Below are positions 2,725 to 29,403 of a DNA stretch of 32,000 nt, piece after piece (position 1 is the first letter of the stretch; every line of letters begins with the position of its first letter). Where the stretch lies: contig NZ_CP107255.1 in NCBI RefSeq assembly GCF_029232205.1, positions 60,001 through 92,000 on the forward strand, given 5' to 3'. The notes beneath the pieces are model-generated. The model was given only the letters and a program-made list of their open reading frames with translations, searched no databases and was not told the origin of the DNA. This DNA is from Candidatus Saccharimonadota bacterium (lineage in GTDB: Archaea > Nanohalarchaeota > Nanosalinia > Nanosalinales > Nanosalinaceae). Both the position numbers and the translations under genes were made by a program.

Positions 2725-2740
2725 TTTTATAAAAATTATA
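2725..2740. promoter_or_regulatory. near-palindromic TATA box (TTTTATAAAAATTATA), possibly bidirectional
   Basis: Strongest A/T box in the 313-nt gap 2673-2985. About 27 nt downstream on the + strand is ATG 2757. On the minus strand it could drive the 2451..2672/topA unit through a short GGTGA-containing leader. Confidence 0.4.
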
Positions 2741-2756
2741 GAAAGATTCTATTCCT

Positions 2757-2822
2757 ATGAACGCATACACGACTTCAGGTGGATGTTTTGTGCCTAAGGG
2801 TGGATGCGTTCTGCTACAGTAG
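2757..2822 (+). promoter_or_regulatory. candidate leaderless mini-ORF (21 codons, MNAYTTSGGCFVPKGGCVLLQ) overlapping an 8-bp-stem hairpin
   Basis: The ATG sits about 27 nt after the TATA centre. GAACGCAT (2759-2766) pairs with ATGCGTTC (2803-2810). The internal direct repeat GGTGGATG occurs twice (2778-2785, 2799-2806). Coding versus structural RNA is unresolved. Confidence 0.25.
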
Positions 2823-2911
2823 ACTTTTCTCTAAAAATCTAGTTTCTGTGGAACTTGTGGCTCTATTGCTGCTAGTTTCGCTGCTGTAAAAATTCTAAGG
2901 TGATAATCAAC

Positions 2912-2986
2912 ATGAAACAACTACAACACAACGCTATACCATCTAAAACATCAAAACCAGCAGAAAAATCAGGAGGTAGATATTAA
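2912..2986 (+). CDS. candidate 24-codon upstream ORF (MKQLQHNAIPSKTSKPAEKSGGRY), translationally coupled to the next gene
   Basis: AAGGTGAT Shine-Dalgarno 7 nt before ATG 2912. Its stop TAA (2984-2986) overlaps ATG 2986 as TAATG. The peptide is basic, unlike the acidic proteome. Confidence 0.3.
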   Translation: MKQLQHNAIPSKTSKPAEKSGGRY

Positions 2987-3447
2987 TGGTCGATAGAAAG
3001 CCAGAATATGCTCCAACAAACCAAGAATACTGGGAAAGACAGTATGAGGGGGCTGATGGAGTTGAAGACAAAGCAAAAGAAGCTCACCAGAATGCAGAAG
3101 ATCTTATGAGCGCTATCTATGATGAAAAAGCTCCTTCATCTGTTCCAGAAGATTTTGATATGGATCCGAGACTTGTTTCTGCTGAAAGGTATGCCGGAGT
3201 GACTATGGATCGTCCTGGCAACAATCCTTCTCACTATAATCAAAGCGATCAGAGGCCAGAAGATGTAGAACCGCACACAGAAGGCCCTGAACATGAGCAG
3301 TGGGTTACTTTGTTGGAAGATGAAGAAGCTATGAAGGCTTTCTCTGGATTATTTGGTGAAGAAGAGACAAGAGAGATTGTAGGCCATCACTCAACTGAGG
3401 GCGATAAAGCCTTTGGAACAGGATACGATGCTGGCCTTCAAAATTAG
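2986..3447 (+). CDS. hypothetical acidic protein
   Basis: 153-aa ORF. Strong AGGAGGT Shine-Dalgarno 8 nt upstream. Acidic composition like its neighbours. No recognisable domain. Confidence 0.6.
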   Translation: MVDRKPEYAPTNQEYWERQYEGADGVEDKAKEAHQNAEDLMSAIYDEKAPSSVPEDFDMDPRLVSAERYAGVTMDRPGNNPSHYNQSDQRPEDVEPHTEGPEHEQWVTLLEDEEAMKAFSGLFGEEETREIVGHHSTEGDKAFGTGYDAGLQN

Positions 3448-3489: not shown

Positions 3490-4752
3490 CTAAACTTCCA
3501 GATATTCCTGACCGCCCATGTAGTCCTGTAGAGGTTCTGGGATCTTGACTCCTTTCTCAGTCATGTTGTTCTCAATAATTGCTGTGATAATTCTCTGAGG
3601 CACAAGGCCTGTTGCGTAGACTGTGTAAGGAGTCTTTCTTTCTCCTTTTTCTCGGTACTTGGTGTCGAACTCTCGGGCCTGGTAGTCTGTACAGCTACCG
3701 TAGCTGCCGACTTCTCCGTACTCTCCTAGAGGAGGCCTCCAGACCTCGATATCGTACTGTTTGAAGGTCTTATTGGAGATGTCGCCGTCGCAGATGTCGA
3801 CAACTCTGTATGGAAGGCCTAGCTCTTTCATGATTTTCTCTGCGTTGCCAAGGGTTTCTTGGAGAATGTCGAGATGGTTTTCTGGTTTGCAGAATGCGAA
3901 CTGTTCTACTTTCTCGAACTGGTGGACTCTCCAGAGGCCTCTGGTCTGTTTTCCGTGTTTTCCGGCCTCTCTTCTGAAGTTTGTGGAGTATCCTCCTAGT
4001 TTGAGGGGGAGGTCTTCTTCTATTACTTCTCCCTGGTATTTTGCTGCCAGTGCGTGTTCTGCTGTTCCGATCAGGTATCTTCCGTTTTCGTTTACCTGGT
4101 AGAGCTGGTCTTCGAATGTTTCCAGGTCTACAGCTGCTGCGATGGATTTTTCTTCCAGCATGTACGGTACCTGATAGACTCCGAAGTCTCTTTCTTTCAG
4201 GAAGTCGATTGAGAAGTTGATGAGTGCCTGGCTTAGTTTGAGTAGTTCCGGGTCTAGGAAGTAGGCTCTTTCTCCTCCTACTTCTGTGGCCTTTTCTGCT
4301 GTTAGAAGGTCGTGTTCTTCCAGGAAGTCGGCTGCGAGTTCGGAGTCTTCTTTTCTGCCGTTTTCCGGTTCCCAGTTTCTGAGTTCTGGGTTGTCTTCCT
4401 CACCTTCTCCTTCGGGTACGTCGTCGGCCAGAAGGTTTCCGACCTGATATCTTACTTCATCGCGTTCGTCTTTTAGTTCGTCGACTTTGTCTTCTAGCTC
4501 GCTTATGCGCTGTTTTACTTCCTGCATACGCTCTATTTTTTCGGAGGCATCCTCGCCTTCCTTTTTAAGTTCCGCGATCCTGTCTCCTACTTCGTTTCTT
4601 TCCTGTTGTAGGCTTTCAAGTTCCTGTAGTTTTTCTCTCCATTCTTTGTCGAGTTCAACTACTTCATCTACTTTTTCAGGGTCCTTTCCACGCCTTCTCT
4701 GCGCGTCCTTGATGTCCTCAGGATTATCGCGGAATACTTCTATACTGATCAT
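3490..4752 (-). CDS. serS: seryl-tRNA synthetase
   Basis: 420 aa. N-terminal coiled-coil tRNA-binding arm, then a class II core (NFRREAG...RVHQFEKVEQF, GEYGEVGS...). Confidence 0.95.
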   Translation of the reverse strand: MISIEVFRDNPEDIKDAQRRRGKDPEKVDEVVELDKEWREKLQELESLQQERNEVGDRIAELKKEGEDASEKIERMQEVKQRISELEDKVDELKDERDEVRYQVGNLLADDVPEGEGEEDNPELRNWEPENGRKEDSELAADFLEEHDLLTAEKATEVGGERAYFLDPELLKLSQALINFSIDFLKERDFGVYQVPYMLEEKSIAAAVDLETFEDQLYQVNENGRYLIGTAEHALAAKYQGEVIEEDLPLKLGGYSTNFRREAGKHGKQTRGLWRVHQFEKVEQFAFCKPENHLDILQETLGNAEKIMKELGLPYRVVDICDGDISNKTFKQYDIEVWRPPLGEYGEVGSYGSCTDYQAREFDTKYREKGERKTPYTVYATGLVPQRIITAIIENNMTEKGVKIPEPLQDYMGGQEYLEV

Positions 4753-4788
4753 ACTTAACCACTTATGCAGAAATTTTTATCTAGAACA

Positions 4789-4949
4789 GGTTTTGGGATC
4801 CGAAGCTCTCTGAGTTTCTGGTTGCAGAAACTTCGCAGAAGTTTCGAATAGAAAAGGCTCTCATCAAGCCTGGTTGGTTGCAATATGCGTCCGGTGAGAA
4901 AAGCGTCCACCTTTCATTGTAGAAAGGTATTTTTACACTGATCTTTAAA
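4789..4949 (-). promoter_or_regulatory. conserved structured upstream element of serS (copy A), including leaderless mini-ORF 4864..4917 (MKGGRFSHRTHIATNQA)
   Basis: Shares ordered blocks with 7267-7405, including an identical 16-mer at 4904-4919 and 7355-7370. TTTAAAG box at 4943-4949 (minus orientation), 26 nt before ATG 4917. Hairpins at 4802-4818, 4814-4831, 4827-4845 and 4855-4871. Confidence 0.5.
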
Positions 4950-5006
4950 CGGTTTTACACTGCTGAAACCCCAATCTTTATATGTTGTCATGAGCAAGTA
5001 GTAATT

Positions 5007-6184: not shown

Positions 6185-7210
6185 TTATTTGAGGTACTCT
6201 GGTTTTTCGTGGCCTATTTCTTCGAGTGGCTGCAGTAGTTCTGGTTCTTCTTTGAATCTTTCTCTTACTGGTTCGAGTCTTTCTACTGCTTCTTCTGCTA
6301 CGGCCTCTTTCAGGTCCAGTGGGTGGAGTTCTCCTGATTTGAAATCTTCAGCCATGTCTTCGAAGTTTTCGTAGTGGAGGTCGCCTCCGTATTCTTCTTT
6401 TCTCTCTATTTCAAGTTCTCTGTCTGCTCCGAAGATGAAGAAGTTGGCGATCTGGATGATTGGGTTGTCCTCTACTTCTCCCTGCGGGCAGTATGCGTCT
6501 TCCAGTACGTCTCTGATTCTTTCTGGGTCGGCGTGTAGTGGGAACATTGTGTTCTTCTTTGATGAAGACATTTTGTCTCCGTCTCCTGCCAGTGAAGATA
6601 GTAGAGGCCAGTGTAGGCATGTTGGTTTTTCGTATCCGAGTTTTGGTAGTTGTTCTCTTGCGAGCATGTGGATTTTTCTCTGTTCTATTCCTGCTACTGC
6701 AAGGTCGAGGTCCAGGTGGACGATGTCGAGGGCCTGCATCAGCGGGTATACGATCTGGCTGATGTAGACTTCGTCTTTGTCTCTGAGATCGTGCTGCATG
6801 CTTCTTTCTCCACGGTTGATTGTTGTTTTCTGTGTCATTGTCAGTAGGTCGTGGAAGTATTCGTCGCTTTCCTGGAAGTCTCTGCCGTGTACGTATTCTG
6901 CGTCGAGGCCCAGTGCTTCGAATGTTGCCTGCCAGTAGTCGATCATTTCTTCGATCCAGTCTTCCTCTCCTTTCTTGTTGAGGAATGTGTGTAGGTCGGC
7001 CCAGAGGATTACGGGTTGGAAACCTGCTTTCTGGATGTCCAGCATTTTACGTACTGAGATCCAGTGGCCCAGGTGTACAGGCCCTGAGGTTTCGTATCCT
7101 ACGTATGCGCGTGGTTCGTCTTTTTCCTTTAGTATTTCTTCAAGCTCTTCTTCCTGGATTATTTCCTCCGAGTTACGGAGTACCAGATTCTTACGTTCTT
7201 CATTATCCAT
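6185..7210 (-). CDS. tyrS: tyrosyl-tRNA synthetase (archaeal type)
   Basis: 341 aa, collinear with M. jannaschii TyrRS as I recall it (EEELxEILKxxxxxAYxGxExSGxxHLGH..., KMSSSK, ELHPxDLKxAVAEE). Confidence 0.95.
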   Translation of the reverse strand: MDNEERKNLVLRNSEEIIQEEELEEILKEKDEPRAYVGYETSGPVHLGHWISVRKMLDIQKAGFQPVILWADLHTFLNKKGEEDWIEEMIDYWQATFEALGLDAEYVHGRDFQESDEYFHDLLTMTQKTTINRGERSMQHDLRDKDEVYISQIVYPLMQALDIVHLDLDLAVAGIEQRKIHMLAREQLPKLGYEKPTCLHWPLLSSLAGDGDKMSSSKKNTMFPLHADPERIRDVLEDAYCPQGEVEDNPIIQIANFFIFGADRELEIERKEEYGGDLHYENFEDMAEDFKSGELHPLDLKEAVAEEAVERLEPVRERFKEEPELLQPLEEIGHEKPEYLK

Positions 7211-7266
7211 TTTCGATCTACCTGTGGAAAATTTTTGAGAGAACGCTTAAAGAGCTGTTGATAGAA

Positions 7267-7405
7267 GGTTTTATGGCATCCGAAGCAGCTACTGCTTCTG
7301 GATTAGAGAAACTCGTTGCGAGTTTCGATTGTTTCAAACTTCCGCTGATAAAAACGTCCACCTTTCATTGGTATCAAGGATGTATTCGGTCTGAAATGTT
7401 AAATT
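7267..7405 (-). promoter_or_regulatory. conserved structured upstream element of tyrS (copy B), including leaderless mini-ORF 7303..7368 (MKGGRFYQRKFETIETRNEFL)
   Basis: Paralogue of 4789-4949. AATTTAAC box at 7398-7405 (minus orientation). Hairpins at 7282-7298 (7 bp) and 7308-7326 (8 bp) keep their pairing through double compensatory changes relative to copy A. Confidence 0.5.
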
Positions 7406-15290: not shown

Positions 15291-15351
15291 ACAGCAGGGT
15301 TTGTTCGAGAATTTTTTTATCTGCTGTGAGGTTTTGTTGGAAGAATAAAAG

Positions 15352-26501: not shown

Positions 26502-29273
26502 CTACTCGATCACTATCGCAGGCCTTCCAGGCTCTGCTCTTGAGGCCTTATCCTCTGAAGACTCATCCTCGGTCTCAACCTCGATTTCCGCGTCGAACTC
26601 CTCGGCCCATCTCCTCACGTTTTCGCCAAGAGCATCGGTCTCAGCGGCCTTCTTCATGAACTGTCCTTCGAACTTGCCAGGGTTTTCGACGGCCTCTACA
26701 ACCATCTGATTGACATCCTGTGCGTGCTGCTTGAGCTCGCCGTCAAGCACCTCACTCATGATGTCGCCGACATCTCTGAGCTCCAGATTATCGATTATAT
26801 TGGTGAAGGCCTGGTATTTCCAGTCTGCGGCCTGAATAATCTTGACATTCGAGGCCTCGCCATCGATCATTTCCTGGATATCTCTGATGTCGCTGGATAC
26901 TCTGTCAAAGTATTCGTCGACTCTCTCGGCCTGTTCATCGAGCAACTGCTCGTCTACTTCCGGCCAGTTTGAGTCCAGCATGAATTCTTCATGCCCTAGT
27001 TCTTCCCAGAGCTCTTCGGCGGTGTGCGGCGCATAAGGCGCGATAAGCTGGATCAAGGTTTCTACGCCGTGGCTGAAAATTGCAGGATCTGCATCGCGCT
27101 GTTTGTACCAGTACAGTTTTGTTAGGAGCTTATCGATTTCTCCGATAGCAAGGTTGAATTCGTAGTTCTCGGTGGTTTCGGTAACTTCTTCTATCGCTCT
27201 CTGTATCCTGCTTGAGACAATTCTATCCTCAAGATCTGAGTCTTCGAGGCCTGGTTCTTCATCGGTAAGCAGATCTTCATTTTCTTCTACAATTCTGAAA
27301 ACTCTCTGAAGCATCTCTCTGGAGGCTTCTACGCCGTCTTCGCTCCAGTCAAGTTCTTTGGTAGGATGCGAGGCCCGGAGGATAAAAGTCCTTGCCGTAT
27401 CTGCTCCATTCTCGTTAATAAGCTCAGTTGGATCCACTACATTGTGCTTGGACTTGCTCATTTTCCGGGTTTCTACTTCTACTTCTCTACCACATTTCTC
27501 ACATATATTCTCTCCTTCTACCTCATCAGGATACAGCCATCCATCCTCCGGACATTTGTATGCTGGATGGTTTACCATTCCAAGTGTAAGCAGTCTCTCG
27601 AAAGGCTCGTCCTCTTCAAGCATCTCTTCATCTCGCAGGAACTTTGTGAAGAATCTTGCGTAAAGCAGGTGCATAACTGCGTGTTCGATGCCGCCGATAT
27701 ACTGGTCTACGTTCATCCAGGAGTTTGCATCGTCAACGTCGAAAGGAGCACTGTCAAGTTCTGGTGAGATGTATCTTAGGAAGTACCATGAGCTTCCAAT
27801 AAATGTATCCATGGTATCTGTCTCTCTTCGAGCTTCTCCACCACACTCAGGGCATTCTGTGTGTTCGAAGGTGCCTGAAGTTTCAATTGGGTTTCCTGTT
27901 TCAGTGAACTCCACGTCTTCTGGAAGCTCTACAGGAAGGTCATCCTCTGGAACAGGGACTACGCCACATTTGTCACAGTAGACTACTGGGATCGGTGTAC
28001 CCCAGTAACGCTGCCTTGAGATCAGCCAGTCACGAAGCTTGTAGTTAACATCCTCTTCTCCAAGGCCTTCGTCCTCTAAATGTTCGATTATTTTTTCTAT
28101 TCCGTCGTCTTTGTCCAGGCCGTCTAAGAATCCTGAGTTTACGTGGTCGCCATCACCTTCATAGGCCTCTTCCTTGAAACTGTGGTCGCCTTCTGGTTCA
28201 ACTACTTTCTGAATATCTATTCCGTGCTCCTGCGCGAATTCAAAGTCTCTCTGATCGTGTGCTGGCACAGCCATTATCGCTCCGGTTCCGTAGTCTGGAA
28301 GGACGAACTCTGCAACATAGATTGGGATTTCTTCTCCTGTTACAGGATTTTCTGCGTATTTTCCTGTGAATACTCCGGCCTTTGATTTTTCCTCTCTTTC
28401 TTCGTCATCTTTCTTCTTGGCCTCTTCGATGTATTCTGCTACATCTTCGTTTTCTTCCGCTACTTCTTCCGCTAGCTCGTGTTCTGGAGCCAGGGCCATG
28501 AATGTTGCTCCAAAGATAGTGTCAGGCCTTGTAGTGAATACTTCTAGTTCTCCTTCATCTTTTACTGGGAAGTTGATTTTTGCACCTGTGCTTTTGCCGA
28601 TCCAGTCGTGTTGCATCTTTCTGACTTTCTCAGGCCATCCATCAAGCTGCTCAAGATCCTCAAGAAGTTCGTCTGCGTACTCTGTGATGCCGAGTTTCCA
28701 CTGCTTCATGTCTTTCTGTTCTACAACTGAGTCGCATCTCCAGCACAGGCCATCTTCTACCTGTTCGTCAGCTAGAACTGTTTCGCAGCTTGGACACCAG
28801 TTTACTTCTGAGTTTTCTCTGTATGCTAGGCCTTCTTCCAGCATTTTCTGGAAAATCCACTGGTTCCATTTGTAGTACTCCGGATCGCAGGTCGCTACCT
28901 CTCTATTCCAGTCATAGGAGAATCCTAGCCTCTTTAATTGGCCTCTCATGTTGTCAATGCAGTCACGTGTCCATTCTTCTGGGTCTACATCGCGATCGAT
29001 AGCTGCGTTTTCTGCAGGAAGGCCGAATGCGTCCCAGCCCATTGGATGCATCACGTCGTAGCCCTGCATTCTCTTCATTCTTGCTGGAGCATCTCCTAGA
29101 GAGAAGTTGCGGACGTGGCCCATGTGGATATCTCCGGAAGGGTATGGGAACATTTCCAGTACATAGTATTTTTCAGAGTCTGTGCGCTCTGCTTTGTGAA
29201 GTTCTGCGTCTTCCCATTTTTTCTGCCATTTTTCTTCGATCTGTTTGAGCTGTTCTGCGAATTCTTGGGCCAT
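26502..29273 (-). CDS. leuS: leucyl-tRNA synthetase (bacterial-type architecture)
   Basis: 923 aa. PYPSG.IHMGHVRNF, GWDAFGLPAE, NWCPSCETVLADEQVEDGLCWRC and KMSKSK are collinear with E. coli LeuS as I recall it. Confidence 0.95.
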   Translation of the reverse strand: MAQEFAEQLKQIEEKWQKKWEDAELHKAERTDSEKYYVLEMFPYPSGDIHMGHVRNFSLGDAPARMKRMQGYDVMHPMGWDAFGLPAENAAIDRDVDPEEWTRDCIDNMRGQLKRLGFSYDWNREVATCDPEYYKWNQWIFQKMLEEGLAYRENSEVNWCPSCETVLADEQVEDGLCWRCDSVVEQKDMKQWKLGITEYADELLEDLEQLDGWPEKVRKMQHDWIGKSTGAKINFPVKDEGELEVFTTRPDTIFGATFMALAPEHELAEEVAEENEDVAEYIEEAKKKDDEEREEKSKAGVFTGKYAENPVTGEEIPIYVAEFVLPDYGTGAIMAVPAHDQRDFEFAQEHGIDIQKVVEPEGDHSFKEEAYEGDGDHVNSGFLDGLDKDDGIEKIIEHLEDEGLGEEDVNYKLRDWLISRQRYWGTPIPVVYCDKCGVVPVPEDDLPVELPEDVEFTETGNPIETSGTFEHTECPECGGEARRETDTMDTFIGSSWYFLRYISPELDSAPFDVDDANSWMNVDQYIGGIEHAVMHLLYARFFTKFLRDEEMLEEDEPFERLLTLGMVNHPAYKCPEDGWLYPDEVEGENICEKCGREVEVETRKMSKSKHNVVDPTELINENGADTARTFILRASHPTKELDWSEDGVEASREMLQRVFRIVEENEDLLTDEEPGLEDSDLEDRIVSSRIQRAIEEVTETTENYEFNLAIGEIDKLLTKLYWYKQRDADPAIFSHGVETLIQLIAPYAPHTAEELWEELGHEEFMLDSNWPEVDEQLLDEQAERVDEYFDRVSSDIRDIQEMIDGEASNVKIIQAADWKYQAFTNIIDNLELRDVGDIMSEVLDGELKQHAQDVNQMVVEAVENPGKFEGQFMKKAAETDALGENVRRWAEEFDAEIEVETEDESSEDKASRAEPGRPAIVIE

Positions 29274-29403
29274 ATCCGGAGTTTTGTATCCAAGTTATTT
29301 TAATCTGTAGAAGGTGGTGGGAGAGATTGTTTCTGCTGTATAATAATCAGAAGGGGAAGGCCTCATAGATAATTTAAATGCGTGGAGTAAACAGGTTAAT
29401 ACG

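Follow-up and report, generated by a model that had tools for sequence, protein, structure and literature searches.

Aminoacyl-tRNA synthetase genes in Bacteria are controlled by T-boxes, attenuators and operator mimicry; for Archaea, we know of no gene-specific cis-regulation of these genes. A different kind of switch is found in prfB, the gene for release factor 2 (RF2), where the ribosome undergoes a +1 frameshift at the site AGGGGG-UAU-CUU-UGA. A review of recoding from 2016 knew of no natural productive use of hungry-codon frameshifting (PMC5009743), and a review from 2021 lists one programmed frameshift, of the -1 type, for cellular archaeal genes (PMC8211752). Here we describe an element from a 32,000-nucleotide (nt) stretch of a nanohaloarchaeal genome (contig NZ_CP107255.1, positions 60,001 to 92,000; the whole of this stretch is referred to as the window), in which serS and tyrS, the genes for seryl- and tyrosyl-tRNA synthetase (SerRS and TyrRS), are each preceded by a mini open reading frame (ORF) whose seventh codon is cognate to the enzyme encoded downstream. 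Comparison with related leaders reveals a common promoter geometry, a cognate codon 7, a Shine-Dalgarno (SD)-like motif at a fixed spacing, the fixation of rare codons, an open +1 frame, and the juxtaposition of its stop codon with the synthetase start codon. We consider it highly probable that the element acts as a translated sensor of the cognate codon, read by the ribosome. That the sensor is read out by a +1 frameshift, with subsequent termination and reinitiation at the synthetase start, appears to us likely, and we propose it with less assurance.

Two mini-ORFs with a shared 5' block

Both genes lie on the minus strand, close to an archaeal topA. serS (3490..4752) encodes a protein of 420 amino acids (aa) that matches TIGR00414 (1.4e-117) and shares 100% identity with SerRS of the cultivated nanohaloarchaeon Ca. 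Nanohalovita haloferacivicina (DPANN), to which we assign the window, while tyrS (6185..7210) encodes an archaeal-type enzyme of 341 aa (NF006330, 2.1e-121). The same gene names had been given in an earlier reading of the window made from the sequence alone (the sequence-only reading), which had also reported an identical 16-nt block upstream of the two genes, mini-ORFs MKGGRFS... and MKGGRFY... with a synonymous difference at codon 5 and with codon 7 as the codon that distinguishes them, a TTTAAAG box (4943-4949) located 26 nt 5' of the AUG of the serS mini-ORF, and an A5T3 tract at 4771-4780. All of these features were recovered. The block, CAATGAAAGGTGGACG, occurs in exact form at 4904-4919 and 7355-7370 of the minus strand; its 14-mer has two perfect copies in the window, and copies with three mismatches are found at chance level. 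Codon 5 is CGC in one mini-ORF and CGT in the other, and codon 7 is TCT (4897-4899) before serS and TAT (7348-7350) before tyrS. The components of the two leaders, i.e. of the segments between the start of the mini-ORF and the synthetase gene together with the promoter P1 in front of them, are the following:

4943..4950, minus strand: TATA box GTTTAAAG of promoter P1, serS leader
4864..4917, minus strand: mini-ORF of the serS leader in the 0 frame, MKGGRFSHRTHIATNQA and a stop codon, the latter 114 nt 5' of the serS AUG
4907..4912, minus strand: SD-like AGGUGG within codons 2-4 of the serS leader, including a GUG in the +1 frame (4908-4910)
4900..4902, minus strand: codon 6 of the serS leader, UUU, the shift-prone P-site codon
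4897..4899, minus strand: codon 7 of the serS leader, UCU (Ser), the sensor codon cognate to SerRS
4755..4898, minus strand: +1-frame ORF of the serS leader, 47 codons and UAA, beginning at the shift site and ending 2 nt 5' of the serS AUG
7397..7404, minus strand: TATA box ATTTAACA of promoter P1, tyrS leader
7303..7368, minus strand: mini-ORF of the tyrS leader in the 0 frame, MKGGRFYQRKFETIETRNEFL and a stop codon
7348..7363, minus strand: shift cassette of the tyrS leader, with AGGUGG (7358-7363), ACGU, UUU (7351-7353) and the sensor codon UAU (7348-7350)
7218..7349, minus strand: +1-frame ORF of the tyrS leader, 43 codons and UAG, with the stop inside an SD-like AGGUAG, 10 nt before the tyrS AUG

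Codon 7 follows the specificity of the downstream synthetase

A scan of species genomes (596 Gb) was carried out with a 15-base pattern, which is too short, and most of the matches listed are due to chance; among them, however, the archaeal metagenome-assembled genome L081 has MKGGRF-Y(UAC) before tyrS and MKGGRF-S(UCC) before serS. A scan of metagenomes with an 18-base pattern yielded 74 loci. Among them are about 30 hypersaline contigs with a synthetase gene that begins 86-165 nt after the mini-ORF, and here codon 7 encodes Ser before SerRS, Tyr before TyrRS, Thr (ACC/ACU) before ThrRS (enzyme confirmed by TIGR00418, 6e-197) and Gly (GGA) before GlyRS (confirmed by TIGR00389, about 1e-186). 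The remaining matches (about 44 of the 74), of non-hypersaline origin, have neither a TATA box nor a synthetase downstream and were set aside because their number equals the chance expectation for an 18-base pattern. They include a repeat family of Ga0126325-334 (L121, L127, L133, L136, L140, L176, L185, L190 and others), which contains the 18-mer by chance, has no downstream ORFs or TATA box, and is unrelated to the element.

Because the metagenome pattern forced the identity of the 5' nucleotides, we also collected leaders without recourse to the motif, from neighboring genes in the same loci and from complete-genome loci identified via SerRS, ThrRS and GlyRS homologues. In total, 14 leaders are outside the pattern selection (L132 tyrS, L137 serS, two from L195, and L196, L198 and L199-L203, all in related genomes, together with three copies, L165/L156 serS and L081). 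The motif-free collection includes:

Nanohalobium constans tyrS leader: MKGGCF-Y
Nanohalobium constans serS leader: MKGGYA-S (UCU)
Nanohalobium constans thrS leader: MKGGHP-T (ACU)
Nanohalobium constans glyS leader: MTGECF-G (GGG)
Nanosalina VS9-1 serS leader: MKGGCV-S
Nanosalina VS9-1 thrS leader: MKGGRP-T
SG9 thrS leader: MKGGRP(CCC)-T
L198 serS leader: MKGGHV-S
Nanohalovita glyS leader: MKGGRF-G

Altogether, we compared 38 distinct leaders of Nanohaloarchaeota, distributed among serS, tyrS, thrS and glyS. In 37 of them codon 7 matches the amino acid of the enzyme encoded downstream, and it varies only synonymously (Ser UCU/UCC/UCA; Tyr UAU/UAC; Thr ACC/ACU; Gly GGA/GGG). All 12 serS leaders have UCU, UCC or UCA at this position, and eight of the nine tyrS leaders have UAU or UAC. 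Codons 5, 6 and 8 onward vary freely, and codon 7 remains cognate throughout the types RF, CF, HV, CV, YA, HP and RP of codons 5-6. The naive probability of finding the cognate codon at this position in four unrelated families is about 1e-5 (6/61 x 2/61 x 4/61 x 4/61). The suggestion of the sequence-only reading that other genomes be searched for copies before further synthetase genes is thus answered by thrS and glyS, and its central claim, a translated mini-ORF with a codon 7 that indicates which amino acid the downstream enzyme uses, is strongly supported in four synthetase families, with a TATA geometry that fits leaderless RNA. We regard a cassette that is shared by four unrelated synthetase families, with the sensor codon swapped for each enzyme, as strong comparative evidence for a sensor of charged tRNA.

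The element is not universal among synthetase genes. It is missing from alaS and leuS of the window, from trpS in L177 and L182 (which removes trpS as a fifth target), from tyrS in L156, L196 and L198, and from all three genes examined in SW_7_43_1, namely tyrS, its paralogue and serS. In the latter (L197:3771-5930, plus strand), two adjacent TyrRS paralogues of 341 and 367 aa are packed against serS with spacers of 30-70 nt and no leader elements; the second, a tRNA-synt_1b gene that we had considered as a candidate TrpRS, proved to be a TyrRS paralogue, 52% identical to TyrRS of the window. The motif does not occur in the highly expressed non-coding RNAs reported for cultivated nanohaloarchaea (PMC10266531).

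A +1 frame without stops as far as the synthetase start

If one nt is skipped after codon 6, a +1 frame is entered that remains open over 23-56 codons, and in 36 of 38 leaders its stop is located between -12 and +11 of the synthetase AUG. Most often (12 leaders) it is found at +1, where stop and start overlap as AUGA; the other positions are +4, +5, +7, +10, +11, -3, -5 and -10..-12. In all 12 serS leaders the stop falls at -5..+11, and in six tyrS leaders it falls at -10..-12, inside an SD-like AGGUGA or AGGUAG (in one more tyrS leader it is found at +7). The tyrS leader of L132 (L132:1474-1590, plus strand) has a +1 frame without a stop, fused in frame to TyrRS, and a frameshift there would give an N-terminally extended TyrRS, in an arrangement similar to that of prfB. 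The 0 frame ends 39-114 nt upstream of the synthetase AUG in every leader, 5-32 codons after the site, whereas the +1 frame leads to this AUG. It does not encode the enzyme, except in L132 tyrS and in a gene of the M20 family described below, in which the +1 frame is the main ORF. On the 5' side the +1 frame is shut by a UGA at nt 2-4.

The leaders range in length from 86 to 186 nt, and therefore the +1 frame has outlasted many insertions and deletions. In the serS leader of the window it is intact across a lineage-specific insertion because the inserted 51 nt are a multiple of three (17 codons). Shuffled leaders have an open +1 frame with a probability of 0.05-0.38 per leader. A block that we assign to a second promoter, P2 (see below), CUAGAUAAAAA, contains UAG and UAA in two frames, and therefore only one frame can cross it. 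The juxtaposition of stop and start codons that is required for coupling by termination and reinitiation is present in the leaders, with the +1 stop in the vicinity of the synthetase AUG.

Two other sources of an alternative frame were considered and rejected. A -1 frameshift is not supported as a read-out, since the -1 frame closes early in most leaders, with the exception of some thrS leaders (the L130 lineage, L199, L200) and the aberrant tyrS leader of L165. Transcriptional slippage on the run of T4-T5 is disfavored because the run is too short and because the outcome would be independent of codon 7.

Geometry of the proposed shift site and constraint at the nucleotide level

The cassette consists of AGGUGG, 4 nt, codon 6 and codon 7, and AGGUGG should be able to pair with the archaeal anti-SD sequence ...UCACCU... 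In its order of SD-like motif, short spacer, shift-prone P-site codon and presumably slow A-site codon, it has the same geometry as known +1 frameshift sites, and it corresponds to the prfB site with a cognate sense codon substituted for the stop codon. In every copy, 4 nt separate the end of the motif (GGUGA in L203) from the P-site codon, and the distance between GGUGGA and the sensor codon is constant at 6 nt, even in copies whose AUG is located 2, 4, 7 or 15-17 codons upstream. SD motifs (GGAGG, GGUGA) also precede internal genes in the loci examined. Among the 38 leaders, 37 show no change in the segment AAAGGUGGA at synonymous sites. In the glyS leader of Nanohalobium, which reads CCGGUGAA, the peptide is altered (MTGE; MTGECF) but the SD-like core is kept and GGUGA-N4-UUU-GGG is retained, and therefore the constraint acts on the nucleotides and their spacing and not on the peptide.

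Codon 6 is UUU in 32 of 38 leaders, CCU in two, CCC in one, GUU in two and GCG in one; UUU accounts for 17% of Phe codons in the genes of the window, yet it is the usual codon 6. GGU and CGU, which make up 13% of Gly codons and 9% of Arg codons in the genome, respectively, are both fixed in the leaders. All these types of codon 6 are known from +1 shift sites, including CCC_N and the Ty3 site GCG-AGU-U (PMC5009743).

As a separate observation, most Ser, Tyr and Thr leaders have a conserved CGG or GGN at nt 25-27, six nt after the sensor codon (4891-4893 and 7342-7344 in the window). CGG represents 2% of Arg codons in the genome, and this triplet might contribute to the shift site as 3' context.

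The leader promoter and a probable second promoter

In 33 leaders aligned at the AUG of the mini-ORF, an A/T-rich TATA box is found at -34..-28, preceded by an A-rich stretch resembling the B recognition element at -40..-35, and CA is found immediately 5' of the AUG. Ordinary leaderless genes of the window have the same geometry (a TATA 8-mer, 21-26 nt, AUG), and therefore the RNA that carries the mini-ORF should be leaderless or nearly so. A further conserved segment lies close to the synthetase genes:

4771..4794, minus strand: proximal block AAAACCUGUUCUAG-AUAAAAAUUU, the probable ordinary serS promoter P2
4781-4794 and 4771-4780 (serS), 15300-15345 (alaS), 29285-29320 (leuS), minus strand: shared block ACCU-N7-9-AGAU(A/U)AAAA

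The block AAAACCU-N-AGAUAAAAAUUU is located just 5' of serS and glyS, and it is found too before alaS and leuS, which are free of a leader. In its general form, ACCU-N7-9-AGAU(A/U)AAAA, it lies 20-22 nt before the AUG of serS, alaS and leuS in the window and of glyS in other loci. The serS of L197, which has lost its leader, still keeps the proximal block. To judge from this distribution, the block before serS and glyS is probably a second, ordinary promoter. It may be an extended promoter or a site for a common factor of translation-related genes. With respect to leuS, the encoded LeuRS (26502-29273, minus strand) matches the bacterial-type model TIGR00396 (E = 0) far better than the archaeal-type TIGR00395 (5e-96), which suggests that it was acquired horizontally.

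Further copies of the cassette

In 323 kb of nanohaloarchaeal DNA, a relaxed search that required an in-frame AUG, the motif GGUG(G/A)A with a sensor codon after two intervening codons, and a +1 frame that is open revealed two more classes of the element, which we call the Val type and the Trp type:

2729..2889, plus strand: third copy in the window, Val type, with a TATA box at 2729-2736, a mini-ORF at 2757-2822 and a +1 ORF at 2791-2889
Plus coordinates ~1830 and ~1600 of L204 (SW_7_43_1), minus strand: Trp-type copies
~600 and ~360 of L203 (N. constans), plus strand: Trp-type copies
Near plus coordinates 1-310 of L181: Trp-type copies

The mini-ORF of the Val type reads MNAYTTSGGCF-V(GUG)-PKGGCV-L(CUG)-LQ and then stops. 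It contains two cassettes, CAGGUGGA-UGU-UUU-GUG and GGUGGA-UGC-GUU-CUG, and thus two different sensor codons, as opposed to the tandem regulatory codons of the trp, his and pheST attenuators. The arrangement is kept in L165 and L198 (MNAH..GGRF-V). Its +1 ORF ends 26-36 nt before a 24-aa ORF led by an SD; in the window (plus strand), the SD AGGUGA is followed by this small ORF (2912-2986), which overlaps via UAAUG with an acidic ORF of 153 aa (2986-3447). The latter had no match in searches of Pfam, NCBIfam and PDB.

The Trp type forms tandem pairs in L181, L203 and L204. The first copies read M-x-x-KGG(R/C)F-W, and their +1 ORFs end about 120-140 nt before anything recognizable. The second copies are located at the 5' ends of genes, after an ORF1 of 15, 16 or 17 codons; the in-frame AUG is always present and the differences in length amount to whole codons. 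An ArgE/DapE-family (M20) deacylase is encoded in L204 by the second copy's own +1 frame; its family profile begins about 5 codons past the shift site, in a layout similar to that of prfB, and the next gene contains an MR_MLE domain. In Geobacillus, an M20 desuccinylase and a racemase of the enolase superfamily constitute a pathway for the conversion of D- to L-amino acids, and by analogy the M20/MR_MLE target could serve in putative Trp salvage. The second copy in N. constans precedes a different ORF, for which a Pfam search gave no match.

The sequence-only reading had named copies in front of unrelated genes as evidence that would speak against a sensor. The Trp and Val types are such copies in the formal sense, but they keep the frame architecture, and the sensor idea is broadened by them. 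That these copies retain this architecture and differ by whole codons speaks for translation of the 0 frame and for a portable module.

Proposed mechanism and alternatives

We propose the following scenario. Promoter P1 would produce a near-leaderless RNA with its 5' end at the AUG of the mini-ORF, on which the ribosome would read AUG-AAA-GGU-GGA-YRY-UUU and thereby bring the cognate codon 7 into the A site. If the cognate aminoacyl-tRNA is plentiful, decoding would continue in the 0 frame up to the stop 39-114 nt before the synthetase start, and little or no enzyme would be made from the P1 transcript. If it is scarce, the A site would remain empty and the peptidyl-tRNA could slip by +1 on the shift-prone codon (UUU, CCC, CCU, GUU or GCG), aided by the SD-like AGGUGG 4 nt upstream, which would pair with the tail of 16S rRNA as in bacterial prfB. 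The shifted ribosome would then read the 23-56 codons of the +1 frame and terminate at or beside the synthetase AUG, in an AUGA overlap or inside an SD, where it would be able to reinitiate and thus raise the synthesis of the enzyme; P2 would probably provide basal expression. Strict coupling by termination and reinitiation at overlapping stop and start codons has been demonstrated in Haloferax volcanii (PMC6728339). What we infer from the features described above is that a frameshift occurs, that it depends on the charging of tRNA, that reinitiation follows, and in which direction the regulation goes; the scenario agrees with all of the conserved features. We favor the direction in which scarcity leads to more frameshifting and more enzyme, because it is the sole homeostatic reading that has the same outcome for the coupled and the fused cases.

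Several points weigh against this scenario. The frameshift, its regulation and the reinitiation are all deduced from comparison. The tyrS leader of L165 (L165:5824-5850, plus strand) is the sole one to break the rule, as it has T6 instead of T5 and its codon 7 reads UUA (Leu); its long ORF is in the -1 frame relative to the AUG, and UAU is in frame with the GUG instead. It may be genuine, represent a copy in decay or stem from an assembly error (the coverage of the contig is about 25x). The +1 re-pairing of tRNA-Phe would be imperfect in Thr and Gly leaders (UUA, UUG), and a shift from CCU to CUA would also be poor. The sensor codons are not rare (GGA represents 48% of Gly codons). The leader may control only a part of the expression, because serS and glyS keep an apparent ordinary proximal promoter. 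Contact between the anti-SD and mRNA in elongating archaeal ribosomes is assumed by analogy. Finally, the GUG contained in GGUGGA (nt 8-10) is in the +1 frame, and the long ORF could start there independently.

The last point leads to the alternative that we consider the most serious, although on balance unlikely, namely that stalling acts without any frameshift: the +1 ORF would start at the GUG, and a ribosome paused at the hungry codon 7 would cover the 5' end together with the GUG and alter the translation of the synthetase via coupling or interference at the stop/start junction. The GUG is invariant and no stop intervenes between it and the shift site. Moreover, the variation of nt 13-15 (CGU, UGU, CAU, UAC) exchanges dissimilar residues when read in the 0 frame (R, C, H, Y) but is synonymous or conservative in the +1 frame (GAY = Asp, followed by V/A/M/I/T), as expected for a reading that starts at GUG, and the M20 gene of the Trp type would gain a natural-looking N-terminus, about 10 residues ahead of the family profile. 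However, a GUG 8 nt from the 5' end without an upstream SD is an unlikely start codon, and neither the constant distance of 6 nt from GGUGGA to the sensor codon nor the fixation of a rare, shift-prone codon 6 (UUU with its 17% usage; CCC, CCU, GUU, GCG) is accounted for. The regulatory outcome is also awkward. If the coupling were positive, less synthetase would be made at low levels of charged tRNA, which is counter-homeostatic; if it were negative, the fused cases (L132 tyrS and M20) and the unfused ones would give opposite outcomes.

Classical leader-peptide attenuation, in which a stall at codon 7 selects between mutually exclusive hairpins that end transcription or hide the synthetase's ribosome-binding site, was the read-out favored by the sequence-only reading, and it is known from leaderless Cys sORF (small ORF) attenuators of mycobacteria (bioRxiv 10.1101/834739). 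The hairpins named for the serS leader of the window do exist, one of them followed by a U-rich run. Their conservation is another matter, since the three overlapping ones are confined to the insertion mentioned above:

4797..4847, minus strand: lineage-specific insertion of 51 nt (17 codons) that holds three overlapping hairpins

This insertion is present only in the serS leaders of the window, L132 and L167, and missing from the 114-nt leader of L165 and from serS leaders of 86-108 nt, while the hairpin at 4855-4871 recurs only in some of the longer serS leaders. No comparable structures are found in the shortest leaders (86-89 nt), and the whole serS leader of the window is no more stable than its shuffled versions (fold z = -1.16). 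According to RNAalifold, the aligned leader families have no conserved structure over the synthetase start and no conserved alternative folds, and we found no terminator-like element conserved across the leaders, the lengths of which range so widely. RNAalifold does predict a hairpin just 3' of codon 7 in glyS leaders, with three compensatory pairs, which agrees with attenuation. It also predicts a long-range glyS helix (UGGA.GUUUU with AAAAU.UCCA), which we rejected, as both arms are invariant, show no covariation, and the helix is lost in L195; its 3' arm is the P2 block, found also at alaS, leuS and the leaderless serS of L197. As attenuation moreover gives no account of the conserved +1 ORF, we consider it very unlikely, and the hairpin switch in particular was rejected on the basis of the restricted insertion and the z-score.

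We find it highly improbable, and more so than attenuation, that the block is a DNA-level element (a site for a transcription factor or a promoter-proximal site) or encodes an active MKGGRF micropeptide, with the match of codon 7 being incidental. The block is located directly 3' of the TATA box, where archaeal repressors often bind, and its nucleotides are conserved beyond what a peptide would need. However, a DNA site does not account for a cognate codon 7 with purely synonymous variation in four families or for an open +1 frame of 23-56 codons ending at the AUG, and the micropeptide is not conserved (MKGGRF, MKGGYA, MKGGHP, MTGECF), nor is the sequence after codon 7. The least probable of all is a T-box-like riboswitch, in which a leader "specifier" codon would pair directly with the anticodon of uncharged tRNA with no ribosome involved: the codon does track the specificity of the synthetase as a T-box specifier would, and its flanking nucleotides are conserved at the RNA level, but the element has no match in Rfam at gathering thresholds or at permissive E-values (E <= 10), with 19 nt between the codon and the predicted 5' end there is no space for Stem I or a platform, neither an antiterminator nor a UGGN bulge is conserved, an in-frame AUG precedes the codon in all cases even though this AUG shifts by 2-17 codons, with indels of whole codons, and the conservation of the +1 ORF is left unaccounted for.

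Comparison with known systems

In its broadest form, our proposal is that Nanohaloarchaeota possess a modular family of switches responding to the supply of aminoacyl-tRNA, in which a hungry sense codon, an SD-stimulated +1 frameshift and a leaderless ORF would combine to deliver the ribosome to the regulated start, and in which the same cassette with a swapped sensor codon would serve SerRS, TyrRS, ThrRS and GlyRS as well as Trp and Val/Leu non-synthetase genes, possibly of amino-acid salvage; we regard this statement, taken as a whole, as evenly balanced between being right and wrong. We found no description of the element in the literature searched. If the proposal is true, it would be the first natural productive case of hungry-codon frameshifting and, for cellular archaeal genes, the first frameshift with a regulatory role and the second programmed one. 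Because nanohaloarchaea are unable to make most amino acids (PMC10266531), the element may reveal how DPANN symbionts monitor the supply from their hosts. A cassette that is so short and portable could also act as a codon-specific reporter of tRNA charging in vivo.

Like T-box riboswitches, the element would control synthetase genes one by one via a matching codon, with one module used for many codons. It differs from them in that there is no resemblance in sequence or structure and no Rfam match, and in that the codon lies in a translated frame, with no direct pairing between the leader and tRNA. If the proposal as a whole is true, the element would be for Archaea, at the level of translation, a functional counterpart of the T-box regulon of Bacteria. 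With the leader-peptide attenuators of amino-acid operons and of pheST, it shares a translated short upstream ORF with a cognate codon, at which the ribosome would sense charged tRNA, and the poly-Cys sORF attenuators of mycobacteria, also leaderless, are the closest leaderless sensor (bioRxiv 10.1101/834739). In contrast to the trp, his and pheST attenuators, the leaders described here have a single sensor codon at a fixed position and no tandem run; they lack a conserved terminator/antiterminator or a duplex that sequesters the ribosome-binding site, and they have instead a conserved alternative frame that ends at the regulated start.

Among the described frameshifts, the ketolide-induced ermC leader resembles our proposal in that shifted ribosomes read into the spacer and activate the downstream gene (PMC5009743), but its shift is induced by a drug and is of the -1 type. 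In Ty1 (CUU-AGG-C) and Ty3 (GCG-AGU-U), a +1 shift is driven by a slow sense codon in the A site (PMC5009743), and the GCG-UCU-A of the Nanohalobium serS leader resembles the Ty3 site; however, these elements are eukaryotic and produce fusion proteins. The +1 frameshift of prfB is similar in having an SD-like element a few nt 5' of the shift site, a shift-prone P-site codon, a short 0-frame ORF that ends soon after the site, and an autoregulatory logic, with an A-site codon that is slow when the product or activity of the gene itself is low (a slowness that we presume for the leaders). On the other hand, the slow codon of the leaders is a sense codon for an aminoacyl-tRNA, whereas that of prfB is a stop codon read by the protein product, and the +1 frame of the leaders mostly delivers the ribosome to the start of the enzyme, with L132 tyrS and the Trp-type M20 gene as the sole cases of fusion to the product. 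Furthermore, the element is archaeal, operates on leaderless RNA, and reuses one cassette with different sensor codons. If our interpretation is true, the logic of the prfB switch has been reinvented here for sense codons.

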